Position numbers and translations under genes: made by a program. Below the pieces are notes generated by a model. That model was not told the origin of the DNA, searched no databases, and saw only the letters and a list, made by a program, of their open reading frames with translations. Positions 24,267-40,954 of a stretch of 64,000 bases of DNA are shown here, piece after piece. Where the stretch lies: NCBI GenBank assembly GCA_965217115.1, contig OZ244239.1, positions 1,361,430 through 1,425,429 on the forward strand, in the 5' to 3' direction. Origin of the DNA: Bdellovibrionales bacterium. GTDB taxonomy: Bacteria > Bdellovibrionota > Bdellovibrionia > Bdellovibrionales > CAYMLA01. Position 1 is the stretch's first letter; each line of letters starts with the position of its first letter.

Positions 24267-24281
24267 TAAGTAGTTTACTTA
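24267..24281. promoter_or_regulatory. Perfect 6-3-6 palindrome TAAGTA-GTT-TACTTA immediately upstream of lexA (candidate operator)
   Basis: Read directly from the sequence. It lies 5-20 nt upstream of the possible lexA start codons. Confidence 0.4.
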
Positions 24282-24543
24282 GCATCTTATGTGTAAATTA
24301 AGTGTAAGTCAATAGGCTGAATCAATATTTTGGGCAAAACGTGGTGGAATATTAAAATTTGAGTTTGCAGCCTTTATGGGTAAGACTGTCTCGGTGAGAG
24401 GTCTGGGAAACGACCCAATTGCTCATTTAGAGAAGTTTGATCGCCCGCAAGATATTTCAGGAACTGTTGCTATTATGACAGAGAGAGAAATTTAAAAGGC
24501 TTCGATAGATATTATTTTTTATTTTTAATAAAAGAGAGGGTTC

Positions 24544-26130
24544 ATGAGATCAGTTTTAGTGTCTTTTTTAGTCTTTAGTGTGGCCATAAATATTTGGGCG
24601 ATGGAAAAAACTTTTATTTATTGTTCAGAGGGAAGCCCCAGTTCTTTTAACCCTCAATTAGCGACCGATGGAGCAAGTTTTAATGCCAGTTCACGCACGA
24701 TTTATGACCGATTGGTGGATTTTTCTCCTGGAAGCACAAGTATCATTTCTGGTTTAGCAAAATCATGGACCGTTAGTAAAAGCTCATTGGTTTATACTTT
24801 TAAGCTACATAAAGGGGTAAAGTTCCATTCGACAAAAAACTTTAAACCCACCAGAAACTTCAATGCCGATGATGTGGTTTTTTCTTTTCGTCGTATGATG
24901 GACAAGAAAAACCCTTATCACTTAGTTAGTGGTGGCACCTATGAGTATTTTCAAAACATGGAAATGGGTAAAATCATTAAAAGGGTTAAAAAAGTAGATA
25001 ATTACACAGTGCAGTTTATCCTCTCTCGTCCAGAAGCACCGTTTTTGGCAAATTTAGCGATGGATTTTGCGAGTATTTTATCAAAAGAATACGCTGATAA
25101 AATGTTGATTGCTAAGACTCCTGAGAAGACAGATCGTTTTCCTGTGGGGACAGGGCCTTTTAAATTTAAAAAATATATAAAGGACACTTTAATTCGCTAC
25201 ACGGCCCACAAAGATTATTTTAAGGGTAAAGCTTTTATTGATCGCTTAGTTTTTAGCATCACACCAGACGCAAGTGTGCGATTCCAAAAATTAAAAGCAG
25301 GGGAATGTCATTTAGTCGGTGAGCCTTCGCCAACAGATTTAAAAAGTATGAGAGTGCGAAGTGATATTCATGTGATGGAGCAAGAAGGATTGAATGTTGG
25401 ATATGTTGCGATGAATGTAGAAAAAAAACCTTTGAATAGTTTATTAGTTCGCAAGGCGATAAATTATGCGCTCAATCGTAGGGCCTACATTAAGGCTATT
25501 TATTTGGGAAATGCAATGGTGGCTAAAAACCCTATTCCTCCGACAATCTGGGGTTATAATAATAAGATTAAAGATTATGAGTATGATATTAAAAAAGCCA
25601 AATCTCTTCTTAAAAAAGCAGGCTATTCCAATGGTTTTGAAATTGAGCTTTGGACCTTGCCCATTTCCCGCCCCTATAACCCTAATGGTAAGAAAATGGG
25701 AGAATTAATCCAAGCTGATTTGGCGAAGATAGGCATTAAGGTTAAATTGATTACCTACGATTGGCCGACTTATTTGTCGAAGGCTCGGAAGGGTGAGCAT
25801 CAGATGATTCAGCTCGGTTGGACAGGAGACAATGGAGATCCAGATAATTTCATGAACGTTCTCTTGGGTTGTGCAGCTGTTGAAGGCGGGGGAAACCTTG
25901 CCCGTTGGAAAAATAAGAATTTTTGCAAATTAATGGTACAGGCGAAATCTATTTCTAATGTAAAGGCGAGAACGAAATTCTATTTGAAGGCCCAAGAAAT
26001 TTTTAAAAAAGAAGCTCCGTGGGTACCTATTGCCCATTCAAAAGTTTTTCGGGCTATGTCAAAAAGGGTTAAAGGCTATCAAATACATCCATTTGGCGTA
26101 GAGATGTTTCATAAGGTGGACTTAAAATAA
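24544..26130 (+). CDS. ABC transporter substrate-binding protein, family 5 (peptide/opine/nickel type)
   Basis: Signal peptide, 528 aa, family-5 SBP sequence style (e.g. WTGDNGDPDNF), followed by DppB/DppC-like permeases. Confidence 0.85.
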   Translation: MRSVLVSFLVFSVAINIWAMEKTFIYCSEGSPSSFNPQLATDGASFNASSRTIYDRLVDFSPGSTSIISGLAKSWTVSKSSLVYTFKLHKGVKFHSTKNFKPTRNFNADDVVFSFRRMMDKKNPYHLVSGGTYEYFQNMEMGKIIKRVKKVDNYTVQFILSRPEAPFLANLAMDFASILSKEYADKMLIAKTPEKTDRFPVGTGPFKFKKYIKDTLIRYTAHKDYFKGKAFIDRLVFSITPDASVRFQKLKAGECHLVGEPSPTDLKSMRVRSDIHVMEQEGLNVGYVAMNVEKKPLNSLLVRKAINYALNRRAYIKAIYLGNAMVAKNPIPPTIWGYNNKIKDYEYDIKKAKSLLKKAGYSNGFEIELWTLPISRPYNPNGKKMGELIQADLAKIGIKVKLITYDWPTYLSKARKGEHQMIQLGWTGDNGDPDNFMNVLLGCAAVEGGGNLARWKNKNFCKLMVQAKSISNVKARTKFYLKAQEIFKKEAPWVPIAHSKVFRAMSKRVKGYQIHPFGVEMFHKVDLK

Positions 26131-26189
26131 AAAAGCTCCATTGAGGTAAAATTTCGATGGGTCTATAGTGAATCTTTCTGTATCGATCA

Positions 26190-27248
26190 ATGAAAACTAG
26201 ACTTTACTCTTTTTGGACGACTAGAATGGTCTTTATGTTTCAGGTGATATTCAAGCGTCTGTATGGTTCATTGCCGACTCTTTTGGGCGTCTCTTTTTTG
26301 GCTTTTGTTCTAATTCGTCTCGTTCCAGGGGACCCTGTACTTGTGTTGCTTGGAGAACGGGGAGGGTCGCCAGAGGTTGTGGCGGAGCTACAGGAAAAAT
26401 TAGGTTTAGATCAACCAGCATGGAAGCAGTATTTTATTTTTATTGGCAACGCTATTCAGGGAGACTTGGGGACATCTATTATTACCAAAAGGCCTGTGTG
26501 GGAGGAATTTATTGATCGTTTTCCAGCGACGTTAGAGTTGGGGATGTTGGGATTATTGTTTGCGATCGTACTGGGTATTCCAATGGGTATTATTGCAGCG
26601 GTGAAGCGTAATTCTTTTTGGGATTACTCTATTATGGGTGGAGCCTTGTTGGGGTATTCCATGCCTATATTTTGGTGGGGCTTGCTATTGATTCTTATTT
26701 TTTCCATTAGTTTAGGGTGGACTCCTGTCTCAGGAAGGATCAGTGCTTTTTATGATGTGGACTCAATTACGGGGTTTATGCTTATTGATACTTTAATGAG
26801 TGAGGATGGGTGGTCTGCGTTTAAGAATGCATTGAAACATCTTATTTTGCCATCCATTGTTTTAGGAACAATTCCTCTGGCAGTGATTGCTCGCATGACA
26901 CGATCTAGTTTGCTTGAAGTGATTCGAGAAGATTATATGCGCACGGCTAAGGCGAAGGGCGTGGGAGGAATGAAATTGATTTTACGCCATGGTTTGCGCA
27001 ATGCTTTGATTCCAGTGGTGACGGTGATAGGTTTGATGGTGGGGAGTGTAATTACGGGAGCTATTTTGACAGAGACGATTTTTTCATGGCCAGGGATTGG
27101 TCGTTGGCTCGTACAAAGCGTGGTGTCACGAGATTATCCTGTTATTCAAGGGGGAATACTGTGCATTGCTACGGTGGTGATTTTGGTGAATTTATTTGTC
27201 GATCTCACCTACTTGTGGATTGATCCTAAAATGAGGAAAAAGGCTTAA
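26190..27248 (+). CDS. ABC transporter permease (DppB/OppB-like)
   Basis: FVLIRLVPGDPV N-terminal motif and the EAA-loop region REDYMRTAKAKG. The true start is probably internal (ATG at 26226 or 26235). Confidence 0.88.
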   Translation: MKTRLYSFWTTRMVFMFQVIFKRLYGSLPTLLGVSFLAFVLIRLVPGDPVLVLLGERGGSPEVVAELQEKLGLDQPAWKQYFIFIGNAIQGDLGTSIITKRPVWEEFIDRFPATLELGMLGLLFAIVLGIPMGIIAAVKRNSFWDYSIMGGALLGYSMPIFWWGLLLILIFSISLGWTPVSGRISAFYDVDSITGFMLIDTLMSEDGWSAFKNALKHLILPSIVLGTIPLAVIARMTRSSLLEVIREDYMRTAKAKGVGGMKLILRHGLRNALIPVVTVIGLMVGSVITGAILTETIFSWPGIGRWLVQSVVSRDYPVIQGGILCIATVVILVNLFVDLTYLWIDPKMRKKA

Positions 27249-28097
27249 ATGGAAAAGTGGAATTTTTTTTGTCACAACAAAGGAGCTTTGGGAGGACTTG
27301 TTATTGTTCTTTTATTTGTTCTGCTGGCGATATTGGCTCCTTTAATAGCTCCCTACTCTCCAATACAAATTCATGAGGGGGCTTATCGTATCGAGCCTTT
27401 TTGGACCTTGGAAGGAAGCTTCCTTTATATTCTTGGTACAGATGACATTGGAAGAGATCTTTTGAGTCGTTTGATTTATGGAGCACGAATTTCTCTGGGG
27501 ATTGGGTTTTTAATTGTAACCTTCTCTCTTTTTATAGGCACGACATTAGGTTTATTGGCAGGTTATTATGAGGGAAAAATAGAGAGTGTTATTATGCGCT
27601 CGGTGGATATTCTAATGTCTTTACCCAGTATTTTACTGGCAATTGTTGTTGTAGCTATTTTAGGACCGAGTTTGATGAACACAGTTGTCGCGGTAGGCAT
27701 TGTTGGTATTCCTTCCTTTGTTCGTTTGGTGAGAGCTTCAGTTAAGGCAGAAAAGTCAAAAGAGTATGTGATTGCGGCAAGGAGTTTTGGAGCATCGTCT
27801 TGGAGGATTGCTATTTTAAATATTCTTCCGAATTGTTTTGCTCCGATTGTTGTGCAAGCGACTTTGGGTTTCAGTGATGGTATTTTAAATGCGGCAGCCT
27901 TGGGTTTTCTTGGTTTAGGGGTTCAGGCGCCTACACCAGAATGGGGGACGATGCTTTCTGACGCTCGTTCCTATATAGAGACGTCACCATGGCTTGTGAC
28001 ATTGCCAGGGCTGTGTATTTTGATTGTTGTTTTAGCATTTAATCTTTTTGGTGATGGGTTACGCGATACCTTTGACCCAAAATTAAGAGGCTCTTAG
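27249..28097 (+). CDS. ABC transporter permease (DppC/OppC-like)
   Basis: ILGTDDIGRDLLSRLIYGARISL and the EAA-loop region EYVIAARSFGAS. The ATG lies 1 nt after the preceding stop. Confidence 0.9.
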   Translation: MEKWNFFCHNKGALGGLVIVLLFVLLAILAPLIAPYSPIQIHEGAYRIEPFWTLEGSFLYILGTDDIGRDLLSRLIYGARISLGIGFLIVTFSLFIGTTLGLLAGYYEGKIESVIMRSVDILMSLPSILLAIVVVAILGPSLMNTVVAVGIVGIPSFVRLVRASVKAEKSKEYVIAARSFGASSWRIAILNILPNCFAPIVVQATLGFSDGILNAAALGFLGLGVQAPTPEWGTMLSDARSYIETSPWLVTLPGLCILIVVLAFNLFGDGLRDTFDPKLRGS

Positions 28098-28123
28098 GGG
28101 CTAGTTATTTTTTTGGAGAATTT

Positions 28124-29500
28124 ATGGCGCAACTAATAACGAAAAACCCCTATAGTCTGGTAGAAATTAATTCCTATGAGATGGATGATTTTGAAAATTC
28201 TAAATTAAAAGTTCAAAGATTAGAAACGGCCCAAAAAACATGGGGCCATGTTGACCTTTCCAAGAGAATTAATCTTGTTAAAAAAGGAATGGAGTATTTT
28301 GAAAATCATCGAGTTGAGATAGCCAAAGATATTAGCGAACAAATAGGTCGACCTTTGCATTATTGCGATGGAGAAGTGAAGGGTTTTTTTGAAAGAGCCG
28401 ATCACCTTTGTGCCATTGCTAGAAGGAGCTTAGCTGTTGAGGTCATTGAGCCCAAGGAGGGGTTTGAGCGAAGTATTGAAGCAACTCCTCTGGGAGTTGT
28501 CTTTGTTATTGCCGCATGGAACTACCCTCTTCTGATTGCAGTGAACTCTATTATACCAGCATTACTTGCGGGGAACACTGTGCTGTTGAAGCACTCTAAG
28601 CTAACTCCTGAAATCGGCAGACACTTTGAAAAAGCGTTTGGAAAATTAGGGGAGTTTGGAGATCTATTATTTAATGTGATTACTGATCATGAGACCACAG
28701 GAAAAATCATTGAAAACACGGGTGTTAATCATGTGGTTTTTACGGGCTCAGTGAACGGTGGTCGTCAGATTCTCTCCCATACCTCGAAGCGTTTTATGAT
28801 GCCTGGTTTAGAGTTAGGGGGGAAAGATGCAGCTTATGTTCACAGTGATGCCGATTTGGCGTTAGCTGTTGAAGCTGTTGTTGATGGGGCCCTTTTTAAT
28901 TCAGGGCAAAGTTGTTGCGGAATAGAGAGAGCTTATGTTCATGAAGATGTCTATGAGGATTTTGTGAATAAGGCTCAAAAGACTATGAGTAGCTATAAAA
29001 TGGGCGACCCAAATGATGAGAATGTCCAACTAGGGCCTTTGGCGCAACCACACGCGGCTGAAGTTATGCAAAACCAAGTCGAAGAGGCGAGGTCTAAAGG
29101 TGCTAAGGTTGTTATTGGTGGAGAAATACATAAAATAAAGAAGGCCGTCTTTTTTCCTGCAACATTAGTTGTTAATGCTGACAATAATATGGAGATCATG
29201 CGTGAAGAGAATTTTGGACCGATACTCTCGGTGATGAAGGTGAAATCTTTGCAGGAAGGCATAGAGAACATCAATGACTCCAACTATGGTTTAACTTCTG
29301 CTATTTTCACCAAGACAAAAGAGACAGCTCAAAATTTTGCTAATCAAGTCGATACAGGAACTGTGTTTATGAATCGTTGTGATTATTTGGATCCAACTTT
29401 GCCGTGGACGGGAGTTAAGGACAGTGGTTGTGGATCATCTTTGTCTCATTTTGGTTTTTTACACCTCACTCGCAGGAAATCGTTACACTTTAAAACATAG
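28124..29500 (+). CDS. NAD(P)-dependent aldehyde dehydrogenase
   Basis: LELGGKDA (catalytic Glu) and GQSCCGIER (catalytic Cys), 458 aa. Confidence 0.9.
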   Translation: MAQLITKNPYSLVEINSYEMDDFENSKLKVQRLETAQKTWGHVDLSKRINLVKKGMEYFENHRVEIAKDISEQIGRPLHYCDGEVKGFFERADHLCAIARRSLAVEVIEPKEGFERSIEATPLGVVFVIAAWNYPLLIAVNSIIPALLAGNTVLLKHSKLTPEIGRHFEKAFGKLGEFGDLLFNVITDHETTGKIIENTGVNHVVFTGSVNGGRQILSHTSKRFMMPGLELGGKDAAYVHSDADLALAVEAVVDGALFNSGQSCCGIERAYVHEDVYEDFVNKAQKTMSSYKMGDPNDENVQLGPLAQPHAAEVMQNQVEEARSKGAKVVIGGEIHKIKKAVFFPATLVVNADNNMEIMREENFGPILSVMKVKSLQEGIENINDSNYGLTSAIFTKTKETAQNFANQVDTGTVFMNRCDYLDPTLPWTGVKDSGCGSSLSHFGFLHLTRRKSLHFKT

Positions 29501-29508
29501 GAAGTATT

Positions 29509-30885
29509 ATGGAAAAAGATTTTTTAACAATTATAAAAACGTATAAAGAAAAAAATGTTAAATGCATTAAGCTGGCCATCACTGATATTGATGGTGTTAT
29601 GCGTGGGAAATACATAAATCTAGATAAATTTGAATCCGTATTAAAGGCCACAGGTGGCTTTTGCGACTGTGTTTTTGGTTGGGACGTCGTTGATAAGCTC
29701 TATGAAAATGATGTCGACTTTACAGGTTGGCATACGGCTTATCCTGATGCTCTCTTTAAAATTGATTTAAAAACACAGAGATGGCTTACCGAAGAGCAGA
29801 TTCCATTTTTTATTGCCGATTTTGTTGATAACGATGGTGAGAGTCTCCACTCTGTGTGCCCTAGAAATTTATTAAAAAGAGTTCTTAGGCAAGCTGAGGA
29901 AATGGGGATGGGCTTTAATCTGGCTTTTGAGTATGAATTTTTTCTTTTTAATGAGACTCCTCATTCTGTGCGTGAGAAGGGCTACAAGAACCTCACTCCT
30001 TTTACGCCTGGAATGTTCGGCTATAGCATGATTAGGAGTTCGACTTATTCAGACATTTTTAACGACTTGATGGATTATTTTTCAGAATTAAATATAGAGA
30101 TCGAGGGTCTCCATTGTGAAACAGGTCCAGGTGTGTTGGAGGCAGCGATAAAATACGGAGAGGCTCTTGATTCTGCCGACAAAGCCGTGTTATTTAAGAC
30201 TTTCTGTAAAGTGTTTTTTCAAAAGAGAGAGATTATGGCGACGTTTATGGCTCGTTGGAGCTTAGAATATCCAGGCCAAAGTGGGCACATACATATTTCT
30301 CCCTACGATCTCAAAACAAATAAAAACCTATTTCATGATGCCTCTGATGGAAATAACATGAGTTCTATGATGAAGTCATTTGTCGCTGGTATGTCTAAGT
30401 ATATGAAAGAATTTTTACCATTAACGACACCGACAATAAACTCTTACACACGATTGGTTAAGGGTTTTTGGGCTCCGACGGCAGCCACGTGGGGGGTAGA
30501 GAATAGAACTTGCGCCCTTAGAGTTATTCCAGGCAGTGATAAATCACAACGGGTAGAGTATCGAGTTGGTGCGGCTGACGGCAATCCTTATATTTGTGCA
30601 GCAGCAGTTATTGGAGCTGGTTTGCAGGGAGTAAAAGAAGGTCTTAAAATTTTAGAACCAATAAAAGGCAATGCTTATGATGTTCAAGACGATTTACCAC
30701 AGGAGTTGCAGTTACCAAGTTCTTTAAAAGATTCAATAAAAAACCTAGCTAAATCAACTGTGGCCCCTGAAATTTTTGGAGAAAAATTTGTGCAGCATTT
30801 TGTAAAAACTCGTGAGTGGGAAGTTTCAGAGTATGAAAAAGCAATCACTGACTGGCAACTAGAGAGATATTTTGAAATTATTTAG
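29509..30885 (+). CDS. Glutamine-synthetase-family gamma-glutamyl-amine ligase (PuuA-like)
   Basis: GS fold sequence (FEYEFFLF, HCETGPGVLE, SGHIHIS, NRTCALRV...RVEYR). Its context with an ALDH and a GATase1 hydrolase is analogous to the E. coli Puu pathway. Confidence 0.8.
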   Translation: MEKDFLTIIKTYKEKNVKCIKLAITDIDGVMRGKYINLDKFESVLKATGGFCDCVFGWDVVDKLYENDVDFTGWHTAYPDALFKIDLKTQRWLTEEQIPFFIADFVDNDGESLHSVCPRNLLKRVLRQAEEMGMGFNLAFEYEFFLFNETPHSVREKGYKNLTPFTPGMFGYSMIRSSTYSDIFNDLMDYFSELNIEIEGLHCETGPGVLEAAIKYGEALDSADKAVLFKTFCKVFFQKREIMATFMARWSLEYPGQSGHIHISPYDLKTNKNLFHDASDGNNMSSMMKSFVAGMSKYMKEFLPLTTPTINSYTRLVKGFWAPTAATWGVENRTCALRVIPGSDKSQRVEYRVGAADGNPYICAAAVIGAGLQGVKEGLKILEPIKGNAYDVQDDLPQELQLPSSLKDSIKNLAKSTVAPEIFGEKFVQHFVKTREWEVSEYEKAITDWQLERYFEII

Positions 30886-30893
30886 GAGATCTT

Positions 30894-32048
30894 ATGAAGC
30901 AATTTGATTTTCCAACGACATTGATTTATGGCGAAGGTGCTTTGGAGGAGTTGTCTCTGCGAATTGCGAAAACAAGATCAAGTTCTTTGTTGTTAGTGAC
31001 AGATAAGACGCTTGTAGAGGTTGGCATTGTATCCTTTGTCATGGATGAGTTAGTAAAGAGAGGCCTAAAGGTTACTATTTATGATGGGACTGACTCTAAC
31101 CCTACGGAAGACAATGTTTTAGAAGGGGCGGAAATTTATAAAGAGCATAAATGTGATGCCGTAGTTGCTCTTGGTGGGGGAAGCCCGATGGATGTTGCTA
31201 AGGGGGTTGTAGTTATGGCAAAAAATGACGGTCCTTTGGCGAAATATGATAATTGTTTCGGTGGTGAGAGACATATTACCAACCCACTGCCTCCTCTCTA
31301 TGCGATTCCAACAACTGCGGGAACGGGGAGTGAGGTTGGTCGCTCTGGAGTGATCATTATTAAAGAGACCAATGATAAGACGATTATTTTCCATCCAGAT
31401 CTTTTGCCAAAAATGGCTGCTCTTGATCCTGTATTGACGAAGGGTTTACCTCCACATATTACGGCAGCAACTGGCATAGATGCATTTACTCATAGTCTTG
31501 AGGCTTATTTTTCTCCTGAATTTCACCCGATGGCTGATGGAATTGCCTTGGAGGGAATGAAGATTATTTTAGATAACTTAGAAACTGCAGTGCGAGAGGG
31601 AGAAAACATTGAAGCTCGGTCAAAAATGTTAATAGCTTCATCTATGGGAGCGACGGCTTTTCAAAAAGGCCTTGGAATGACTCACTCTATAGCTCATCCA
31701 CTATCAAGCGAGTGTGGACTGCATCACGGTTTAGCCAATGCAATCATGCTTCCATTTTGTATCGCATTTTTAGAAGAATCTAATCTTAGTGAATTCCAAA
31801 GAGAAAAAATAGCCGATGTTCAAGGTCTTTTTGAAAAAAGAAATCTCTCTAAGGAGACACTTTCCCAATCTTGCAAATCTTATTTCGAGAGATTGGGGAT
31901 TAAATCCGGTCTTTCAAATTACAATGTCACTGAAGATCAAATCAAGATTCTTAGTGAAAAAGCGCTTAAGGACCCCTGTCATCAAACCAATATGATACCA
32001 GTGGACCTTGAGGATTTTAAAAAAGTTATAAGAAGGAGTTTGAGTTGA
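30894..32048 (+). CDS. Iron-containing (group III) alcohol dehydrogenase
   Basis: GGGSPMDVAK, the PTTAGTGSE glycine-rich motif, and a His-rich metal site (HSIAHPLS...HHG). Confidence 0.9.
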   Translation: MKQFDFPTTLIYGEGALEELSLRIAKTRSSSLLLVTDKTLVEVGIVSFVMDELVKRGLKVTIYDGTDSNPTEDNVLEGAEIYKEHKCDAVVALGGGSPMDVAKGVVVMAKNDGPLAKYDNCFGGERHITNPLPPLYAIPTTAGTGSEVGRSGVIIIKETNDKTIIFHPDLLPKMAALDPVLTKGLPPHITAATGIDAFTHSLEAYFSPEFHPMADGIALEGMKIILDNLETAVREGENIEARSKMLIASSMGATAFQKGLGMTHSIAHPLSSECGLHHGLANAIMLPFCIAFLEESNLSEFQREKIADVQGLFEKRNLSKETLSQSCKSYFERLGIKSGLSNYNVTEDQIKILSEKALKDPCHQTNMIPVDLEDFKKVIRRSLS

Positions 32049-32734
32049 TAGGGATTCTTGATTCTTACCATGAGGATAAAACGCCTGGAAATTATCAGGA
32101 AGAATATATTCCTGTAATTTTAAAGTTTTTTGATAAAATTTTTGAGTCAAGGGTTTACCATGTTGCTCAAAATGATTTTCCCCGTTCTGTGAATGATTGC
32201 GATGGTTGGATTATTACGGGCAGTCCTCGGAGTTGTTACGATGGAGATGAATGGCTAAAAAAATTAAGCACCTTTATTAATGAAGCACACAGAAACAAGT
32301 CTAAGCTCTTTGGCATTTGTTTTGGTCATCAAATAATAGCTCACAGTCTGGGAGGGAGAACTTTAAGGTCAGAAAAAGGCTGGGGTATTGGTGTTAGAGA
32401 GATTAAAATCATTGAACACAAGCCTTGGATGGAACCAGGCTTAGAAGATATCAAGCTTATTTTTTCACACCAAGATCAAGTTGTACAGCTTCCGTCAGAG
32501 GCGAAGCTCCTTGGGCAGAGTGAATTTTGTCCTAATGAAATGTATTCTATAGGTGAGCATATTTTTTCAATTCAAGGACACCCAGAGGTTACGAAGGATT
32601 TTGCCTTAAATAGGTTAGAGTCCCGTTTAGAGGAGATCGGTGAGTTAGCATCTTGCATTGCTAGAGAATCTTTAAACTCTCAAAGCCCCGATAATGATAT
32701 TGTGGGGGCTTGGGTTAAAAGCTTTTTTTCTTAA
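32045..32734 (+). CDS. Class I glutamine amidotransferase-like hydrolase (PuuD-like candidate)
   Basis: The nucleophile elbow GICFGHQ and the QGHPE His/Glu pair. Its TTG start overlaps the ADH stop by 4 nt. Confidence 0.75.
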   Translation: MIGILDSYHEDKTPGNYQEEYIPVILKFFDKIFESRVYHVAQNDFPRSVNDCDGWIITGSPRSCYDGDEWLKKLSTFINEAHRNKSKLFGICFGHQIIAHSLGGRTLRSEKGWGIGVREIKIIEHKPWMEPGLEDIKLIFSHQDQVVQLPSEAKLLGQSEFCPNEMYSIGEHIFSIQGHPEVTKDFALNRLESRLEEIGELASCIARESLNSQSPDNDIVGAWVKSFFS

Positions 32735-32775: not shown

Positions 32776-34077
32776 TTACATCTGTTCTTTACTGACTTCT
32801 TCGATCTTGGCGTGTTCGATCAAATAATTAACAACCTTTTCCTCGATAATTTGGTAGGTTAATCGCGATCGCTGCTCATCAGAGCCGTAGAACTCTTTGA
32901 TTTTACTGAGATCAAGTCCTGTTTGTTGAGCCATTTCAGTGTATTTTTGTTCGAAGTCACTGTCTTCACAGCTTATTTTTTTCTCTTTGGCAACGGCATC
33001 GATCATAAATCCTGAATGAACCATCTCCTTGGCCATATTATCAAAATCCTGTCCCCATTTTTGTGAGTATTCAATAAAGTCTTTTTCGTTCATACCCTGT
33101 TCGGTCATGCGTTTCTGCACGTCATTGATGAGATTTTGTTTTTGCTCTGTTTGCAGGGACTTTGGAACATCCATCGGGTTCTCTTGGACAAGCTTCTTTA
33201 AAACATTATTTTTTAAATCTTCTTTAATGCGATTTTCTTCATTTTTAAGTAAATCTCTATGAATTGTTTTCTTAAGGTCTTGGAGAGTCTGGTCCTTGCC
33301 ACCGAGTGATTTAATAAGTTCGTCGTTAAGTTCAGGAAGTTCTGATTTTTGTAGCTTGTTGAGTTTGACCTTGAATTCAACAGGTTTACCAGAAATCTCT
33401 TTTGCGTGATAATCATCAGGAAATTTTGTCGATATATTTTTCTCAGAACCAACCTTCATACCAACTACTTTTTCTTCAAAACCTTCAATGAAGTTTTTTG
33501 ATCCAAGTTCCAAGGAGTGGTCTTTTCCAGAGCCCCCTTCTAAGGGAGCGCCATTGATGGAGCCGTCAAAATCAATGATAGCAATATCGCCCATTTGTGC
33601 AGGTCGATCTTCAAAGATATCTACGGCTGTGGCTTTGCTTTTTCTGATGTTTTCAAGAGTTTGATCTACTTGAGAATCGTCTAATTTTAAAATTTCTTTC
33701 TTAATAGAGAGGCCTTCAGAAGTTTTGAGAGTAACTTTAGGGCGAACCTCAAATAGGGCAGAGAAAGAAAAGGAAGAGCTTTCGTTGATATCTTTGAAGT
33801 CAAACTGAGGGTTGCCTATAGGTTCTAAGGTGTGTTCAGTTAATGCTTCCCCGTAGTTAGTTTGCACAATGTCTTGCAAGACGTCTTGTTTAACTTTGTC
33901 GCCATAAGACTGACGAATTTTGTTTAAAGGAGCTTTGCCCTTGCGAAAGCCAGAGATATCAGCGTCTTTTTGAATGACACGGTAGATTTTATTAAAAGCT
34001 GTTTTTACTGTTTCACTAGGAACTTCAATATTGAGTCTACGCTCTAGTTTTGATAATTCTTCGACATGGCTCTTCAT
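32776..34077 (-). CDS. tig: Trigger factor
   Basis: 433 aa with N-terminal ribosome-binding region GFRKGKAP and a central FKBP-type domain. Confidence 0.92.
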   Translation of the reverse strand: MKSHVEELSKLERRLNIEVPSETVKTAFNKIYRVIQKDADISGFRKGKAPLNKIRQSYGDKVKQDVLQDIVQTNYGEALTEHTLEPIGNPQFDFKDINESSSFSFSALFEVRPKVTLKTSEGLSIKKEILKLDDSQVDQTLENIRKSKATAVDIFEDRPAQMGDIAIIDFDGSINGAPLEGGSGKDHSLELGSKNFIEGFEEKVVGMKVGSEKNISTKFPDDYHAKEISGKPVEFKVKLNKLQKSELPELNDELIKSLGGKDQTLQDLKKTIHRDLLKNEENRIKEDLKNNVLKKLVQENPMDVPKSLQTEQKQNLINDVQKRMTEQGMNEKDFIEYSQKWGQDFDNMAKEMVHSGFMIDAVAKEKKISCEDSDFEQKYTEMAQQTGLDLSKIKEFYGSDEQRSRLTYQIIEEKVVNYLIEHAKIEEVSKEQM

Positions 34078-34196
34078 GGTTTTAGGCTCCTTAAGAGTTT
34101 TATATTCAGTTAATGTACTGACCTACTGCTAGAAGCTCTTAAATGCAAGTCTAGGGAGAATTTTGTCGCTTTCAGGTCAGCGATGTACTATGCCAT

Positions 34197-35027
34197 GTGA
34201 GTATGAATCAGCAAAAAATTATCTTAGTTTCAGGTAAGGGGGGAGTGGGTAAAAGCACGTTGGCCGCTTGTTTGGCTCAAAAACTGGCAAATGAAGGTCA
34301 AGAGGTGTTGCTTGTGAGGCTTTGCCGCTCATCTTCAAAAGAAAAGGCATCTCTCCGGGCCTCAACCCTATTTCCAGGGGCAGAACCATTTCAAGTGGCC
34401 TATTGGATGGGACTTGGGTGTTTACAGGATTATGTAACGCACGTAGTCAAATCTTCAAAGGTGGCTTCCTTGTTTTTTGCGAATCTGACAGTTCGCCGCT
34501 TACTAGAGGTGGCTCCCGGGCTGTGTGAGTTGTCTATTTTGGGAAAACTAACCAGTGGTATTCGCGGAGTTGGAGATTTGTTTTCTTACGATGTTGTGGT
34601 GGTGGATGGTTATGCGACGGGACACACATTATCTCTTTTGAAGGCTCCTGTTGCGATGAGAGATTTTTTTTCCACAGGGAGTCTTAAAAACCCCATGGGA
34701 GAGCAGAGTTCTGATATTTTAAAAGTATTGCAAAATAAAAACATCTTTAAAGTGGTGATTGCGACTCTTCCCGAGGAATTTTCTTTAGAGGAGTCTTGTG
34801 GTTTTGCGCAGGAATTAGAAAAATTAGAGATAGAGTGTGAGTTTTGGTTGAATCGTGTTTGGCCTGAGTGTCCAGAGAAAATAAAAGAAGGATTGTGGTG
34901 GGATCGGGTCAAAGCACAGAAGCGAGCTCTGGTTAAAAATCCTGAGAAATTTTCTATGGAGTGGCCTTTTATTCCATACGTTCAACGAGAGGAGTTATAT
35001 AGAAAATTACTAGGAGAGGTTCTATGA
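34197..35027 (+). CDS. ArsA/Get3-family P-loop ATPase, half-size subunit 1
   Basis: Deviant Walker A SGKGGVGKST and the ArsA signature-like DGYATGHTLSLLKAP. GTG start at 34197, with an in-frame ATG at 34203. Confidence 0.72.
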   Translation: MSMNQQKIILVSGKGGVGKSTLAACLAQKLANEGQEVLLVRLCRSSSKEKASLRASTLFPGAEPFQVAYWMGLGCLQDYVTHVVKSSKVASLFFANLTVRRLLEVAPGLCELSILGKLTSGIRGVGDLFSYDVVVVDGYATGHTLSLLKAPVAMRDFFSTGSLKNPMGEQSSDILKVLQNKNIFKVVIATLPEEFSLEESCGFAQELEKLEIECEFWLNRVWPECPEKIKEGLWWDRVKAQKRALVKNPEKFSMEWPFIPYVQREELYRKLLGEVL

Positions 35028-36097
35028 AAAAAGTGAGTTCACTTTTTGAGTCTAACCGCATTTTGGTTTGTGTTGGGGCAGGGGGAGTTGGTAAAACCAC
35101 AGTGGCAGCTTCTCTGGGAGTTTTATCGGCAAAGGCTGGGTTGAAAACTCTTGTTCTCACGGTGGACCCCTCTCGACGCCTAGCTAAGGCGTTTGGTCTT
35201 GGGGATTCAGAAGAGCAAAAACAAATTCACTGGGAAGATGTTTGTTTTCCACAAGGGGGAGAGTTCTGGGTGGGGGCGATTTGTCACGAGTTATTTTTTG
35301 CTCGTTTTATTCGCGAAGGGGTTAAGGATGAAGCTCTTTTGCAGAAACTAATAAAGAATAAAATATACCAAAAATTAACTGATACTTTATCTGGTTCCCA
35401 GGATTTTACATCTATGGGGAGATTGTTAGAGGCATGGGAATCTCAAGAATTTGATTTGATCGTTTTAGACACTCCTCCGAGTGAGCATGCTTTGGATTTT
35501 TTTCAAGCTCCTAAAAAATTTCAAAGGATTTTTGATAAAAAATTAATGAGTTGGTTTTCTCAAGAGAAGGACACAGATAGAAAACTCCCAAACCTTCTTA
35601 AATCTCTTGTGGGTTTTGGTCTTCAATCAGCACAGAGTGTTTTGCAAAAATTAACAGGAAGCTCTTTTATGTTAGAATTGACAGAGTTCTTTTCGGCATT
35701 GAGTCATTGGCAACAGGAATTAAGTGACAAGACGAAAAAAGTTGATGAACTTTTAAAAAGTTCAAATTTAAAATTTGTCGTTGTGACAGGTGCAGAGGAA
35801 GAGCGTTTGGAGCAAACAGAGTATTTAAAAAATCAGTTACAGCAAGAGGGCTTATCTTTAGAGGTGGTGGTGGTTAATCGTATTTTTCCATCGCCAGATT
35901 CTGTAAGTCGAGAACATTGGCCAGAATTGGAGAAACATTATTCTTATCAAAAAAATCTGTGTCAAAAATTGAGTCTCGATTTAAATGGAGTACCTGTCAT
36001 TGAGGTTTTAGAAATGAAGGAAGATATAGGAAGTCTTGACGGAGTGATGATCTTTTCAGAGTTGATATTAAAAAATGAACAGGAGATGGGTTTATGA
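35024..36097 (+). CDS. ArsA/Get3-family P-loop ATPase, half-size subunit 2 (divergent)
   Basis: GAGGVGKTT, VDPSRRLA and DTPPSEHALDFF. ATGA start/stop overlaps occur with both the upstream and the downstream genes. Confidence 0.72.
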   Translation: MKKVSSLFESNRILVCVGAGGVGKTTVAASLGVLSAKAGLKTLVLTVDPSRRLAKAFGLGDSEEQKQIHWEDVCFPQGGEFWVGAICHELFFARFIREGVKDEALLQKLIKNKIYQKLTDTLSGSQDFTSMGRLLEAWESQEFDLIVLDTPPSEHALDFFQAPKKFQRIFDKKLMSWFSQEKDTDRKLPNLLKSLVGFGLQSAQSVLQKLTGSSFMLELTEFFSALSHWQQELSDKTKKVDELLKSSNLKFVVVTGAEEERLEQTEYLKNQLQQEGLSLEVVVVNRIFPSPDSVSREHWPELEKHYSYQKNLCQKLSLDLNGVPVIEVLEMKEDIGSLDGVMIFSELILKNEQEMGL

Positions 36098-36876
36098 AAA
36101 AAAAATCTCTAAATTATTTTGAGGAATTTTTTCTTGGTTGTGCTTCCCCCGTTAAAGGCATGAGACTTCTTATGGGAGACAGGTCATTGCGTCGACTCTC
36201 ATTTTGGCCTTTTATAATCTACATTCTATTCTTTATTATTGGATTGAGTTTCTCATCACCATTACTGTTGGTGGTTTCTTCTTGGGTAACGGCCATGTTG
36301 GGAAGTACAATTGCCTCTGGATTCTTGGGGCTGTTGATTTTAATAGTTACAAAAATAATGAGTTGGTTATTTTTTGTTTTGGTATTGGGTTACGGGGTTT
36401 TTTTGGTGACTAATATTATTGCGTCGCCGTTTTATGCTCTTTTGGCTGAAAAAATATTGAAAGACAGAGGAGAAATGCCAGAGGGGGCGAAATCTCTGAA
36501 GAGTTGGTTAGGTCGAAATCTGGGCCTGATTTTACAGGCGCTGATTAAGGTGATGATTTTTCTTATCTTGGGTGCCATTTTGTTTGCTTTGTCCTTGATA
36601 CCAGCAATTGGTTTTATTGCAACTTTTGGCTTTTTTCTGATTATCGCTTTTGATTGCAGTGATTATTCCTATGAAGCTGTTTTGTGGAATTTTCGTCAGA
36701 GAATGAGTTTCTTTACTTTGCACTGGGCGGCTCATTGTGGTTTGGCGCTGACAATAGGCTTTATTTTTATGATCCCTATAATGAATATTTTTTTATTTCC
36801 GATGGCGGTTGTTGGGGCGACAGATCTATTTATTCGGTTGAGAGCTACTGACAAAGCGAGTGTAATTGAAACCTAA
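36094..36876 (+). CDS. CysZ/EI24-family polytopic membrane protein
   Basis: The motif IIASPFYALLAEKI after the second TM pair resembles the CysZ/EI24 signature. About 6 TM segments. ATGA overlap with the preceding ATPase gene. Confidence 0.55.
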   Translation: MKKKSLNYFEEFFLGCASPVKGMRLLMGDRSLRRLSFWPFIIYILFFIIGLSFSSPLLLVVSSWVTAMLGSTIASGFLGLLILIVTKIMSWLFFVLVLGYGVFLVTNIIASPFYALLAEKILKDRGEMPEGAKSLKSWLGRNLGLILQALIKVMIFLILGAILFALSLIPAIGFIATFGFFLIIAFDCSDYSYEAVLWNFRQRMSFFTLHWAAHCGLALTIGFIFMIPIMNIFLFPMAVVGATDLFIRLRATDKASVIET

Positions 36877-36891
36877 GTTAGCGAGAGAAAG

Positions 36892-38139
36892 ATGAAAGAT
36901 TTTGTACATAGGCAAATTATTAAGAACATAGATTCAGTATCTGATTGGTTTCAACAAAAATCTTTGCACCCCTATCTCCCTTTCTATTCATCGTTTGATA
37001 TGAGGGACAGTGGTTATAAGATCACTAATGTGGATGCGAATCTTTTTCCTGCTGGATTTAATAATATTTGTGAGGTTGACCGGGATGAGGCGCCAAATTT
37101 GGTCTCTCAATATTTAGAGCGTTGTTACAATCTTCCAAAGAATGCTAAAATTGTGTTATTAACCGAAGAGCACACGAGAAACGCTTATTATTGGGAAAAT
37201 ATTTATCAAATATTGAATTTATTAGAAGGGTTAGGTCACAAGGTGAAATTATGTGTGCCTAAAAAATTGGAAAAAGACATTTATGTGCAATCGGCAACAG
37301 GTAGGGAGTTGATTATTGTGTCTTGGTGGCAATTAAAGAGAGAGGGTTTTGTCCCAGATGTTGTGATAAATAATAACGATTTTTCTTCTCACTATGAGGA
37401 ATGGGAAGCATCTTTGCAGGAAGAAGTGATGTTGGTGAACCCTCCCTGGCAACTTGGTTGGCGTTGGAGAAAGAAGAGCGATTATTTTTTCCATTTTAAT
37501 TCTTTAGCTGAAACCTTTGCTCAAATAATAGATGTGGACCCGTGGGTTTTTACGGTGAGAACAGAGGTTTTTTCTAATTTCTCGATCAATGAGAGAGGGA
37601 GTCGAGATAGTTTAGCGAGTATTATACAAACACAAATAGATGAACTCTCTGAGGACTATGCACAGAGAAAGATTGATAGAAAACCGACAGTTTTTGTAAA
37701 AAACAACTCTGGAACCTACGGCATGGGAATTATAGCTGTGAGTTCAGGAGAGGAGTTTTTGCAATTAAATAATAGAGCGCGGACGAAGATGAAGGCCTCC
37801 AAGGGAGGAGAGGGGATTGGGGAGGTGATTGTGCAAGAGGGGATACCGTCCTCTTTGTTAAGTGGACAGTCAGTGGCGGAGCCAGTTCTCTATCTTGTTG
37901 GTGAAGAGTTGGCAGGGGGGTTTTTGCGAACTCATAAGGATAAGGGAGTGGTTGATAATTTGAATAGTCCGGGGGCTGTGTATAAGCGACTTTGTGTTTC
38001 TGATTTAAAAATAAATGTGGAAGGTTCTCCATTGGAAAATGTTTATGGTTGGGTTGCTAAGCTGGGTGTGCTTGCTTTGGCAATGGAGATTAAAAGTAAA
38101 AAAATAAAAATCTGTTCTTGTTCTGAATTGGAAAATTAA
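36892..38139 (+). CDS. gshA: Glutamate--cysteine ligase, rare 'T. ferrooxidans-type' family (assigned from recalled motif)
   Basis: PFYSSFDMRDSGYKITNVDANLFPAGFNN matches my memory of the N-terminal signature of this GshA family (PF08886/TIGR02049). This needs an HMM check. Confidence 0.55.
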   Translation: MKDFVHRQIIKNIDSVSDWFQQKSLHPYLPFYSSFDMRDSGYKITNVDANLFPAGFNNICEVDRDEAPNLVSQYLERCYNLPKNAKIVLLTEEHTRNAYYWENIYQILNLLEGLGHKVKLCVPKKLEKDIYVQSATGRELIIVSWWQLKREGFVPDVVINNNDFSSHYEEWEASLQEEVMLVNPPWQLGWRWRKKSDYFFHFNSLAETFAQIIDVDPWVFTVRTEVFSNFSINERGSRDSLASIIQTQIDELSEDYAQRKIDRKPTVFVKNNSGTYGMGIIAVSSGEEFLQLNNRARTKMKASKGGEGIGEVIVQEGIPSSLLSGQSVAEPVLYLVGEELAGGFLRTHKDKGVVDNLNSPGAVYKRLCVSDLKINVEGSPLENVYGWVAKLGVLALAMEIKSKKIKICSCSELEN

Positions 38140-38209: not shown

Positions 38210-38908
38210 ATGAAAAATGGGAGTATACGGTTTGTAGGTATTTTTGGATTTATATTTTTCTTTGCGATGGGGGTGAATATTGCCTTTAAATCGTGGAGTG
38301 GTTCTACCTATGTAAGTCAAAAAGTTTGGTTTGATGGAAAGCGCGATTTAGCTTCTGTTGGCAAGGCATTCGATTTTTCTAACTTAAGCGGAAATATCTT
38401 TCGTGGAGAAGCCAAATCTCAAATGATAGAGAGAGCTAGGGTGAGTGAGGGATTAGATCGAATTGGTGTGCAGTTGGGTCATTTTTTAGTAAGAACGAGT
38501 GAGGGTAAGAGAAATTTTATCTGTCGAGAGCATGGCCGCGTGGAAATGACTTTTAAAGCCAGTGGCTTTGCAATCAACGGTCGTAGGCCTGTGATGGTGG
38601 TGGATGGACTGTGCAATGTTGCCAATGATGTTAATTATATTTCGACGTTGTGGATTCCTGTGAAGGAGATCATTAAAAGTTCAGCAGGAGATGTTGAATT
38701 TAAATTTAGAGGAGAAGCTCCTGTGAGTGTGACCTTTGATGGAATGGGAGATAGTTGGCCAGAGAATTGGGCACTGTCTAGTGTGCGTTTTTATTCAGAA
38801 GGACAAAAAAAAGGAAAAGAGATGGTTGTTGAACAAAGGGATATCTTAAAGTTGCAAAAAAACAAACGCCTATCTCTTAATTGGAATCGCTGGATTCAGC
38901 AGAAATGA
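38210..38908 (+). CDS. Hypothetical membrane-anchored or exported protein
   Basis: The ATG at 38210 is preceded by AAGGGAGG. N-terminal hydrophobic segment FVGIFGFIFFFAMGVNIAF. Confidence 0.5.
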   Translation: MKNGSIRFVGIFGFIFFFAMGVNIAFKSWSGSTYVSQKVWFDGKRDLASVGKAFDFSNLSGNIFRGEAKSQMIERARVSEGLDRIGVQLGHFLVRTSEGKRNFICREHGRVEMTFKASGFAINGRRPVMVVDGLCNVANDVNYISTLWIPVKEIIKSSAGDVEFKFRGEAPVSVTFDGMGDSWPENWALSSVRFYSEGQKKGKEMVVEQRDILKLQKNKRLSLNWNRWIQQK

Positions 38909-39086: not shown

Positions 39087-39413
39087 CTATTTTTCTAATA
39101 TAGTACAAAAATCTTCATTATGATATACGTCAACAGCATAATAGAAAGAAATCTTATATATAGGCAATTCATAACGTGTTGGATTTTCATAAATTAAACC
39201 CTTAACAGTTATATTAAATCGATATAAGCTTTTAACATCAGAATTTTCAATGGAAAAGCGAGTAAAGAACCAGCGATCTATATTTTTATTTTCAGTCAAT
39301 AATTTGTTAACGGCGTACTTACGTACTTTGTCTTGACAATCTTTAGATGCCCCCTCTTTTGCAAAACTAACCACAGTACTAAGCAATACTAATAGTGCAA
39401 ATATTTTTTTCAT
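39087..39413 (-). CDS. Small secreted protein, unknown function (108 aa)
   Basis: Signal peptide MKKIFALLVLLSTVVSFAKEG. No motif recognised. Confidence 0.55.
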   Translation of the reverse strand: MKKIFALLVLLSTVVSFAKEGASKDCQDKVRKYAVNKLLTENKNIDRWFFTRFSIENSDVKSLYRFNITVKGLIYENPTRYELPIYKISFYYAVDVYHNEDFCTILEK

Positions 39414-39478
39414 AAAGCCCCTTTTTGTTAATTTTTCGAGAGAGTATCGCCAATTCTAAAACTTACAAGATAAAATCT

Positions 39479-39505
39479 ATAGATCGTTTAAAAAAAACGA
39501 TCTAT
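39479..39505. other. Perfect 10-bp inverted repeat (atagatcgtt-N7-aacgatctat) upstream of the 108-aa gene
   Basis: Read directly. It lies about 65-90 nt upstream of the ATG at 39413. It could be an operator or a weak terminator. Confidence 0.3.
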
Positions 39506-39678
39506 CGCCGCTGATTTTCTAGTTAATGGTATTATAAAGAAAATTTTTCGAATCCAAGACATATCTTTGTTCAAATACAATGGTTTTTTGTGACCGAAGG
39601 AAATAGTTTATGGATATACGTCATATTGAAAAAAAACATTAACAATCTAGTGATGAGTAAAAGATGCAGATAAAGCAC

Positions 39679-39706
39679 AAAAAAGAGGCTACCAATTGGC
39701 AACCTC
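39679..39706 (-). terminator. Rho-independent terminator of the 153-aa gene
   Basis: Minus strand reads gaggttgcc-aatt-ggtagcctc followed by tttttt. It lies about 50 nt after the stop at 39758. Confidence 0.65.
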
Positions 39707-39757
39707 GTCATCTTTTCCTAATTTTGATAAACTAGTTAGTTATTAAAACCTAAAATC

Positions 39758-40219
39758 TTAATTTGTATAAAACCAATCGAGACGATCAAAATCTTCAAAA
39801 TCGGTTTCACAGGAAGTGATCTGTCCATCTGTAATGAGAGCTTCGACATCATTAGATTCTGTGTTAATAAAAAAACCATAGATGTTCCCGCCAGCATCAA
39901 AGAGATACATTCTATAATTTCTGTCATGGGCAGTGTCTTTTATTGATCTAACCCAAAGTTCAGCCTTCTCAAGACTATAAGAAGCATATTTGAGTGCCTC
40001 TTCATAGCTAGTAACAGACACTCCCAGGCTAGCAGAGACCCCTTTTATAATCTGGGAGAGTGTTTTTTTATTTACTTTTGAATCCTTATTAAGGGTTTGT
40101 TCTTCAGATACAATCAAATCTTTCATTCGTGCAGTGTCAACAAGGTCGTCACCAAAGAGACATTTAGAAAAAGAGGGGACAGATGTGAGTAGAACCAATG
40201 CAATTAATATTTTTTTCAT
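39758..40219 (-). CDS. Small secreted protein, unknown function (153 aa)
   Basis: AAGGAGAA RBS and signal peptide MKKILIALVLLTSVPSFSK. A decayed paralog fragment lies at 38937..39003. Confidence 0.6.
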   Translation of the reverse strand: MKKILIALVLLTSVPSFSKCLFGDDLVDTARMKDLIVSEEQTLNKDSKVNKKTLSQIIKGVSASLGVSVTSYEEALKYASYSLEKAELWVRSIKDTAHDRNYRMYLFDAGGNIYGFFINTESNDVEALITDGQITSCETDFEDFDRLDWFYTN

Positions 40220-40409
40220 AATTGTTCTCCTTGAATTGTGTTCACTAAGAGAGGAACCTATTAATTTCTTTAATTAAACAAACTTCTATCTCCTTCCCGG
40301 AAATAAGCAATAAATTTATTTCGTTTGAAATATTTACAAAGCAGATCACTCACGACACTCGAATGTTTTTTTTGGATTTGTTCTTAAAAAAACAATGGCT
40401 TCTGAATTC

Positions 40410-40438
40410 AAAAAAAAAGGCCACTTTTTGCAGTGGCC
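40410..40438 (-). terminator. Rho-independent terminator (conserved cassette 3' flank, copy 1)
   Basis: Minus strand reads ggccact-gcaaaa-agtggcc followed by ttttttttt. Confidence 0.7.
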
Positions 40439-40483
40439 CCGTTATAATTCCTTCGCTCAGACGAGTGAGGACAATTTTAGAAT

Positions 40484-40954
40484 CTATTTCCTAATTTTCA
40501 GAGTTGTTAAGCAATAATACCTATCTAAGTCTCTATAATCAAGAACCTTTAGAGGGCGGCGGTCCATGGTTCTGACCTTTTCAAGTTTATAACAGGATAT
40601 TTTGTCATCAACAATAGATCTTCGATAGGCCACAACTCTTTTAGATTTTGTCCCTGATCTAATTTCAGTTACTAAATCATGGGATTTAATGAGTTTCCTT
40701 TGTTGTTCACCAGATTCAAACAAGGCCTTTGCATAGCGAGTGAAGTAAAGAGGTACTTTTCCACTTGCAACGATATCGTTTTCCTCGTCTTGAGTTACTC
40801 TGTCCAGGAGATCTTGAAAAGCCTTGCCAGAACCAAAGCTAGGGTACTCAGTAGCAGGGACTCTCTTTTCAACCGCGGTCGATGCTATTTTGGTCTTTAT
40901 TCCAGAACAGGAAACAATACTTAAGCTAAGCAAAAGAAGGGCAATTATTTTCAT
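40484..40954 (-). CDS. Lipoprotein, unknown function (156 aa)
   Basis: MKIIALLLLSLSIVSCSG contains the lipobox IVSC. Confidence 0.6.
   Translation of the reverse strand: MKIIALLLLSLSIVSCSGIKTKIASTAVEKRVPATEYPSFGSGKAFQDLLDRVTQDEENDIVASGKVPLYFTRYAKALFESGEQQRKLIKSHDLVTEIRSGTKSKRVVAYRRSIVDDKISCYKLEKVRTMDRRPLKVLDYRDLDRYYCLTTLKIRK

Follow-up and report, generated by a model that had tools for sequence, protein, structure and literature searches.

In the genome of a Bdellovibrionales bacterium, two half-size ATPase genes of the ArsA/Get3 fold lie directly in front of a gene for an EI24-family membrane protein and a glutamate-cysteine ligase gene (gshA). They are part of a window of 64,000 nucleotides (assembly GCA_965217115.1, contig OZ244239.1, positions 1,361,430 to 1,425,429 of the forward strand), and all coordinates given here count from the first letter of this window. 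Judged from sequence comparisons, the two ATPases represent a BagA/BagB (BagAB)-type pair which appears to sit in a previously undescribed envelope and thiol operon, together with a membrane protein from a new, apparently non-sulfate subfamily of the CysZ fold. We propose that the operon codes for an envelope or low-molecular-weight (LMW) thiol stress module comprising the BagAB-like ATPase, the dedicated CysZ-fold protein and the gshA product, and we assign this reading a probability of about 0.5. The locus contains the following features.

32776..34077, minus strand: tig, coding for trigger factor (TIGR00115, 1.5e-124)
34078..34196, no strand: divergent intergenic region of 119 bp, presumed to hold the promoters of tig and of the operon
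34197-35027, plus strand: ATPase subunit 1, BagA-like, ArsA/Get3 fold, 276 aa (PF02374, 1.6e-20)
35024-36097, plus strand: ATPase subunit 2, BagB-like, 357 aa (PF02374, 8.4e-30)
36094-36876, plus strand: predicted CysZ-fold, EI24-family inner-membrane protein, 260 aa (PF07264, 2.1e-21)
36892-38139, plus strand: gshA, rare PF08886-type glutamate-cysteine ligase, 415 aa (PF08886, 1.7e-114)
38210..38908, plus strand: predicted bitopic protein with a Cys pair, here called Post (no Pfam or NCBIfam match; orthologs 3' of gshA)

The gene for the first ATPase subunit (ATPase-1) starts either at GTG 34197 or at ATG 34203 and shares an ATGA start/stop overlap at 35024-35027 with the gene for the second subunit (ATPase-2), which in turn overlaps the EI24 gene by an ATGA at 36094-36097. 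Shine-Dalgarno-like GGAG sequences precede both ATPase-2 and the EI24 gene, and the latter is separated from gshA by 15 nt. The translations contain GKGGVGKST and DGYATGHTLSLL in ATPase-1, GAGGVGKTT and DTPPSEHALDFF in ATPase-2 and IIASPFYALLAEKI in the EI24 protein. An earlier reading of the letters of the window alone (the original prediction) had described these four open reading frames (ORFs) with their motifs, both overlaps and the 15-nt gap, all of which we verified, and its family assignments were borne out by matches to hidden Markov models (HMMs), namely PF02374 twice, PF07264 and PF08886/TIGR02049. It went too far in deducing a stoichiometric complex from the ATGA overlaps, because such coupling alone does not show a complex.

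The best match of ATPase-2 among the NCBIfam models was BagB (NF053621, 188.7 bits, cutoff 521), and its best match in the PDB was 6BS3_B, which represents Rv3680/BagB (6.6e-38), the ArsA and Get3 structures following at 1e-13 or weaker. ATPase-1 scored about 64-65 bits with each of the ArsA, GET3 and BagA models, in every case below the cutoff (BagA, NF053622: 63.7 bits, cutoff 400), and matched 1F48 (E. coli ArsA) best in the PDB (1.6e-18), with 6BS3_A at 3.6e-11; for its orthologs in related operons, BagA is the best NCBIfam match. A Mycobacterium pair used as control (L065) passed both equivalogs, with 530.7 bits for BagA (cutoff 400) and 630.8 bits for BagB (cutoff 521). Homologs of ATPase-2 are numerous (more than 1600 were found), and scanning species-representative genomes with their alignment yielded 80 loci from Bdellovibrionota, Myxococcota, Actinomycetota, Binatia, Planctomycetota and others, true BagAB pairs among them. 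An ATPase-1-like ORF lies directly 5' of the ATPase-2-like ORF in nearly all of these loci, the second subunit occurring alone in a few, and subunit-specific HMMs identified the first ORF as BagA-type and the second as BagB-type. The window ATPases are best called distant BagA/BagB-type (Rv3679/Rv3680-like) subunits, as far as sequence comparison can tell, and homologs rather than equivalogs. They share with BagA/BagB of Mycobacterium tuberculosis (PDB 6BS3-6BS5) the arrangement as two adjacent half-size genes in the same order, but the two pairs are only about 30% identical, with scores far below the equivalog cutoffs. Subunit 1 is also shorter in the window (276 aa vs. about 340), and the switch II of subunit 2 keeps a His (SEHAL) which is missing from the mycobacterial SRNAL. 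Moreover, the window-type pair belongs to a six-gene envelope/thiol operon, whereas whiB- and ponA-type genes come after the pair in mycobacteria. The analogy to Rv3679/Rv3680 drawn in the original prediction is therefore upheld by the best matches of ATPase-2 and by the shared Walker A asymmetry described below, as is its statement on actinobacterial pairs without a membrane partner, since the Mycobacterium loci contain genes for WhiB and a class A penicillin-binding protein (PBP) instead.

Assignments to ArsA or Get3 proper were considered and rejected. The locus resembles an ArsA-ArsB/Acr3 pump in having an ArsA-fold ATPase beside a membrane permease, two homologous halves and a match to the ArsA_ATPase family of Pfam. 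However, the halves are encoded by separate genes, the Cys113/Cys172/Cys422 triad is missing, the scores with TIGR04291 are 65 and 48 bits (cutoff 650), no arsB, acr3, arsD or arsR gene was found near the window pair, and the membrane partner is of the CysZ fold and optional. With Get3/TRC40 and its Get1/Get2 receptor, the locus shares the ATPase fold, a presumed dimeric architecture and a co-encoded membrane protein, but the zinc-bridged homodimer would be replaced by a heterodimer, neither protein contains a CxxC motif, and the scores with TIGR00345 (65.4 and 80.9 bits) stay below the cutoff of 135.

The two subunits differ in their nucleotide-binding motifs. ATPase-1 has a Walker A motif with the signature lysine and a switch II of the sequence DGYATGHT and lacks a TxDP switch I, and ATPase-2 has a Walker A motif without the signature lysine, a retained switch I (TVDPSRRL) and DTPPSEHAL as switch II. 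The same division was found when 24 pairs from several phyla, L065 and L079 of Mycobacterium among them, were aligned. Subunit 1 combines a deviant Walker A motif that includes the signature lysine (GKGG[VT]GK[ST]) with the lack of TxDP, and subunit 2 combines a Walker A motif without this lysine (G[STAC]GGVGKTT) with a retained TIDPxxRL. The pattern of ATPase-1 is common to the upstream subunits of the pairs in all phyla, true BagA included, and BagA/BagB of M. tuberculosis conform with GKGG and no TxDP in subunit 1 and with G[AST]GG and TIDPxxRL in subunit 2. Because the signature lysine works in trans in this ATPase superfamily, we infer that the pair most likely forms a heterodimer with one competent and one degenerate ATP site. 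Subunit 1 would donate its signature lysine to the site of subunit 2, which keeps the switch I Asp, and the reciprocal site, having neither the signature lysine nor the switch I Asp, would be degenerate. A Cys of subunit 1 (GLGC, around residue 73) is kept in 12 of 13 Bdellovibrionota proteins and in no other phylum.

The first relatives of the EI24 gene, obtained by a word-indexed search and few in number, were located in loci in which the two ATPase genes, one extra gene, EI24 and gshA follow tig, itself on the opposite strand, and in which stop and start codons overlap by 1-14 nt. We tallied 15 loci of the Bdellovibrionota type in total (the window, L001-L003, L008-L012, L014, L015, L018, L019, L022 and L088). 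In these, tig lies divergently 5' of the ATPases in all cases where the contig is long enough to include this region, and the extra gene, coding for a lipoprotein (LipoX), is found in 13 of the 15, counting a remnant in L001 and a weak partial match at the contig end in L009. No neighbour of the pair is more constant than gshA, which lies downstream in 14 of 14 informative loci, and orthologs of Post occur 3' of gshA in 12 loci. The linkage of these genes is far beyond chance, because the same order is kept across lineages at only 29-37% protein identity. The ancestral order would accordingly read tig (divergent), then bagA-like, bagB-like, TPR lipoprotein, EI24, gshA and the bitopic Cys-pair protein. 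The trio of two ATPases and EI24 noted in the original prediction is indeed conserved as a unit, in the window, L001, L002, L003, L012, L018 and L088, although it represents a reduced form of a longer operon with LipoX and Post. On a rough neighbour-joining tree of ATPase-2, the EI24-bearing loci are scattered, which suggests that EI24 was an ancestral component lost at least three times.

Among the contexts found here, only the Bdellovibrionota operon links the pair to other genes in a consistent manner. Unbiased clustering of the neighbours revealed no partner of the pair that is conserved across phyla; a single cross-phylum candidate (cluster 14) turned out to be a spurious antisense ORF in high-GC DNA. 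In 13 Actinomycetota loci, including Mycobacterium, a class A PBP gene lies on the same strand 3' of the BagAB pair, often with a WhiB gene in between (L039, L044, L051, L057, L059, L065, L067-L070, L076, L079 and L082), which gives a second, independent hint of an envelope link for the pair.

The EI24 protein of the window matched PF07264 with 77.4 bits (cutoff 32), and its family profile matched the three solved CysZ permeases at 1e-38 to 2e-42. An AlphaFold2 model built from a 67-sequence alignment reached a predicted local distance difference test score (pLDDT) of 93 and a predicted template-modelling score of 0.88, and a Foldseek search with this model retrieved CysZ chains only (6D9Z, 3TX3 and 6D79), with template-modelling scores of 0.60-0.75 under the two normalisations and a match over the full length of the fold. 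We are confident from this modelling that the protein has the CysZ fold, which consists of two full transmembrane helices and hemi-penetrating hairpins (PMC5967866), so that the roughly six transmembrane segments of the original prediction are an approximate description only. The functional residues reported for CysZ are the GLR(R) sulfate site, ExVE, R129/R133 and QYxDYPxDNHK (PMC5967866), and we mapped them in PdCysZ numbering onto six operon-linked sequences, the alignment near R129 being uncertain. E106 is replaced by L (by Y in L018), R133 by Q, H, V or I, Q176-Y177 by D-C or D-x, and D183-N184-H185 by E-hydrophobic-x, the residues R133, Q176, Y177, D183, N184 and H185 being substituted in all six sequences. 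The arginine of the GLR sulfate site is kept in the window (SLRR) and its closest relative only. The PFxxLLAEK helix and several CysZ prolines are retained, and the window protein has the motif AFDCSDYSYE where CysZ has QYxDYPxDNHK. Because the CysZ transport residues are lost and the score with the CysZ equivalog NF003433 (66.4 bits) is below the cutoff of 140, sulfate uptake by the EI24 protein appears unlikely. CysZ and YihY have been proposed as remote homologs of the mitochondrial ADP/ATP carrier (bioRxiv 10.64898/2026.03.31.715626); should this hold, transport by the CysZ fold may not be confined to sulfate, a point of relevance to a non-sulfate EI24 subfamily. The genetic context differs as well, because CysZ is encoded alone or with cys genes and the EI24 protein in a BagAB-like operon.

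To define the extent of the subfamily, we searched 1.84 billion representative proteins exhaustively with a profile, which at E<=1e-30 returned at least 161 representatives (clusters at 50% identity), and most of the top 150 share a D-x-x-D-Y-x-x-E motif. A metagenome scan with the EI24 alignment yielded 80 loci, 79 of which represent canonical CysZ (QYxDYxxDN) or other EI24-family proteins and do not lie near an ATPase pair; the remaining one (L088, from TARA) carries the subfamily motif and lies within a full operon. Three further subfamily members were sampled at random, and all adjoin LipoX, GshA or both; gshA lies directly 3' of EI24 in L168 and L169. Altogether, the subfamily was found inside the operon in 10 of 10 loci, compared to 0 of 80 loci with canonical or other EI24 types (Fisher p = 2e-13, from a set of Fisher tests on locus counts with p values of 1e-7 to 1e-16, in which the loci are not phylogenetically independent). 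The survey of EI24/CysZ neighbourhoods for ArsA-type pairs suggested along with the original prediction thus showed that the subfamily is restricted to the BagAB-like operon in all ten loci sampled. Together with its altered residues, it would define a second, non-sulfate branch of the CysZ fold, and the window protein would be a dedicated member of this branch that evolved inside the operon. A second, more CysZ-like EI24 type with QY kept and DN lost was observed in a metagenome-assembled genome of the Bdellovibrionaceae (L006/P0006, GCA_002722705), where the paralog is located away from any ATPase pair; because it is of a different type, Bdellovibrionota must contain at least two EI24 lineages.

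The extra gene between ATPase-2 and EI24 codes in the relatives for LipoX, a lipobox-bearing TPR protein of 370-425 aa, which is a lipoprotein of about 250 aa in the Bdellovibrio/Pseudobdellovibrio clade and is reduced to a lipobox-bearing remnant of 145 aa in L001, the closest relative of the window. Searching the window with a LipoX HMM gave no match. Because the relatives carry LipoX, L001 a remnant and the window none, the ATGA junction between ATPase-2 and EI24 in the window represents the scar of a LipoX deletion. The gshA product scored 383 bits with PF08886 (cutoff 25) and matched TIGR02049 (gshA_ferroox) over its full length with 318.7 bits (cutoff 293.9), as expected for a bona fide gamma-glutamylcysteine ligase of the rare type named in the original prediction, whose hint at thiol metabolism is strengthened by the constant presence of gshA at the pair. 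Post probably starts at ATG 38210 behind a GGGAGG ribosome-binding site, the ORF being also open from GTG 38192. An N-terminal transmembrane helix is accompanied by RxPAA and WPxxW motifs and by two invariant Cys spaced about 30 residues apart, and the protein probably has a periplasmic, beta-rich domain. Only the transmembrane helix is usable in its single-sequence AlphaFold2 model (pLDDT 41), and a homolog search returned Post alone. Both LipoX and Post are predicted from their sequences to face the periplasm, and no homologs of either were detected elsewhere in the fetched loci.

Because LMW thiols buffer methylglyoxal as well as nitric-oxide stress, because mycobacterial bagAB mutants are affected by both and because the pair is linked to gshA, we infer a role in thiol or electrophile stress. 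A report on mycobacterial bagAB implicates the genes in glycerol/methylglyoxal and nitric-oxide toxicity (PMC10597346). The module would act at the cytoplasmic membrane and envelope in the homeostasis of LMW-thiol or electrophile stress. In it, gshA would supply gamma-glutamylcysteine, and the envelope side would consist of the CysZ-fold protein, the lipoprotein and the bitopic protein; the BagAB-like ATPase would be the subunit that energises or chaperones, working on or with these components. That the CysZ-fold protein, joined in most lineages by the TPR lipoprotein and the bitopic protein, is also the physical membrane partner of the heterodimer is a more speculative and rather improbable extension. 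Such an ATP-driven envelope machine would move a thiol related to gamma-glutamylcysteine or glutathione, or insert or chaperone envelope proteins; if true, it would reveal the mechanism of BagAB, which is relevant to stress tolerance in M. tuberculosis.

Several observations weigh against the proposed module. Of the 14 informative Bdellovibrionota loci, 7 have EI24 and 7 lack it, and accessory genes were found within 8 kb of the pair in 0 of 70 loci of other phyla. Because of these absences, the core function of the pair must need no accessory gene, and EI24 cannot be an obligate dock of the ArsB or Get1/2 kind; it is therefore a dedicated but dispensable partner. The window itself has no lipoprotein gene, and Post is encoded on the opposite strand in L088. 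Subunit 1 of the window is the most divergent of its group, with the ambiguous best NCBIfam match among ArsA, GET3 and BagA mentioned above, and the conserved Glu of other pairs (LLVE) is replaced by Arg (LLVR) in this protein and likewise in L001. The Cys in the second position of the EI24 motif, considered as a clue to thiol chemistry, was rejected, because it occurs in 49 of 150 subfamily representatives and is not a defining residue. Finally, the synteny reaches the housekeeping genes tig on the 5' side and PepA on the 3' side (8 loci), so part of the conservation may be inherited gene order.

This last point leads to the view that the genes have independent functions, with a cytoplasmic role of its own for the pair, EI24 as a divergent permease and gshA producing gamma-glutamylcysteine, and are kept together by synteny or operon economy. 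The self-sufficiency of the pair in the 70 loci of other phyla agrees with this, as do the unrelated housekeeping genes tig and pepA in the syntenic block and the separate losses of EI24 (at least three times) and LipoX (once) together with the inversion of Post. However, mere synteny is argued against by the exclusive occurrence of the EI24 subfamily in the operon, at 10 of 10 loci and with divergence from CysZ at functional sites, and likewise by the order kept at 29-37% identity with overlapping stop and start codons and by the lack of homologs of LipoX and Post elsewhere in the fetched loci. We regard this view as improbable. A somewhat better, still doubtful case can be made for an ATP-driven transporter, the first hypothesis of the original prediction. 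In the manner of ArsA-ArsB, the heterodimer would bind to the cytoplasmic head of the CysZ-fold protein and energise the movement of a sulfur or thiol compound, e.g. gamma-glutamylcysteine, glutathione or cysteine exported to the periplasm or a sulfur oxyanion imported from it. The EI24 fold is that of a proven anion permease (PMC5967866). The ATGA that joins ATPase-2 and EI24 in the window and the tight coupling along the operon in the relatives would fit such a transporter, as would the operon-exclusive EI24 subfamily, gshA immediately 3' of EI24 and the presence of periplasmic partners, one of them with an invariant Cys pair. In this operon, though, the ATPase is universal and EI24 optional, which is the reverse of the ArsAB dependency, and a lipoprotein gene separates ATPase-2 from EI24 in most relatives. 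Furthermore, the residues of the sulfate site and the head network are lost and no ArsA-type metalloid site exists. Published structural work on BagAB is said to have judged anion transport unlikely.

A Get3-like chaperone or targeting function is improbable as well. The heterodimer would shield hydrophobic segments of envelope proteins and bring them to the membrane, with EI24 as receptor or insertase or with EI24, Post or the lipoprotein as clients. The Get3/ArsA fold of the ATPases is compatible with this, and a hydrophobic groove is commonly retained by bacterial Get3-like proteins, which may serve as general chaperones (PMC6593721). In addition, tig, whose product is a ribosome-associated chaperone, is conserved as a divergent neighbour, all operon partners are envelope proteins, and the class A PBP gene follows the pair in the 13 Actinomycetota loci. 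On the other hand, no tail-anchored client is evident in the operon, since Post is anchored N-terminally and LipoX is a Sec/Lol-type lipoprotein, and the CysZ fold, the only one retrieved by Foldseek for the EI24 protein, is unrelated to the Oxa1/Get1/YidC insertases. The missing CxxC motif, the scores of both ATPases below the GET3 subfamily cutoff and the dispensability of EI24 in many lineages add to this. A Get3 device with its own receptor, as envisaged in the original prediction, thus finds neither its client nor an Oxa1/Get1-type receptor at the locus. Because EI24 is optional and the lipoprotein gene intervenes in most lineages, a strict ArsA-ArsB or Get3-receptor reading is weakened in either form, and we continue to prefer the envelope or LMW-thiol stress module.

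In the literature searched, we found no description of an association of a BagAB-like pair with EI24 and gshA, in agreement with the original prediction, which knew of no such module; a 357-aa protein of Bdellovibrio bacteriovorus is included, with its function unassigned, in a survey of ArsA homologs from 2010. BagA/BagB-type ATPases are widespread, their more than 1600 homologs coming from Actinomycetota, Bdellovibrionota, Myxococcota, Binatia and other phyla, and in mycobacteria they affect how well glycerol/methylglyoxal, nitric oxide, citrate and antibiotics are tolerated (PMC10597346, PMC12216072). The family is without an established substrate, partner or mechanism, and the operon gives the first genomic clue to its partners. 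The linked genes point to the envelope and to LMW thiols and provide concrete candidates for interaction and epistasis studies, so that an orphan ATPase family becomes a testable system, its mechanism remaining inferential.

Some further observations concern the surroundings of the operon. The intergenic region at 34078..34196 contains a short stretch GTAnTGACnTACTnCTAGA...GCTnTTAA common to the window and L001. Searching this region against Rfam gave no match and no riboswitch, its predicted RNA folding was not unusual (z = 0.71), promoter and terminator scans of the locus stayed at background level, and a PADLOC check for defence systems returned only P-loop-level noise. The gene for the M17 leucyl aminopeptidase PepA lies convergently about 3.4 kb 3' of ATPase-2 in L008, L010, L012, L014, L015, L018, L019 and L022 but not in the window; since Cys-Gly can be a substrate of PepA-type enzymes, a loose thiol link is possible. 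Downstream of the operon, the minus strand of the window at 39087-40954 contains three small ORFs of 108, 153 and 156 aa with signal- or lipoprotein-like N-termini and no Pfam match. On the other side, positions 23519-32734 are occupied by lexA (minus strand) and genes for an Opp-type peptide ABC transporter (SBP_bac_5 and two permeases), an aldehyde dehydrogenase, a glutamine-synthetase-like enzyme, an Fe-alcohol dehydrogenase and a class I glutamine amidotransferase, with several overlapping or tight junctions, which looks like a Puu-type set for the catabolism of gamma-glutamyl amines. In L001, lexA and a peptidase M14 gene directly adjoin tig, and because lexA adjoins tig there, the block at 23519-32734 represents an insertion in the window relative to L001.

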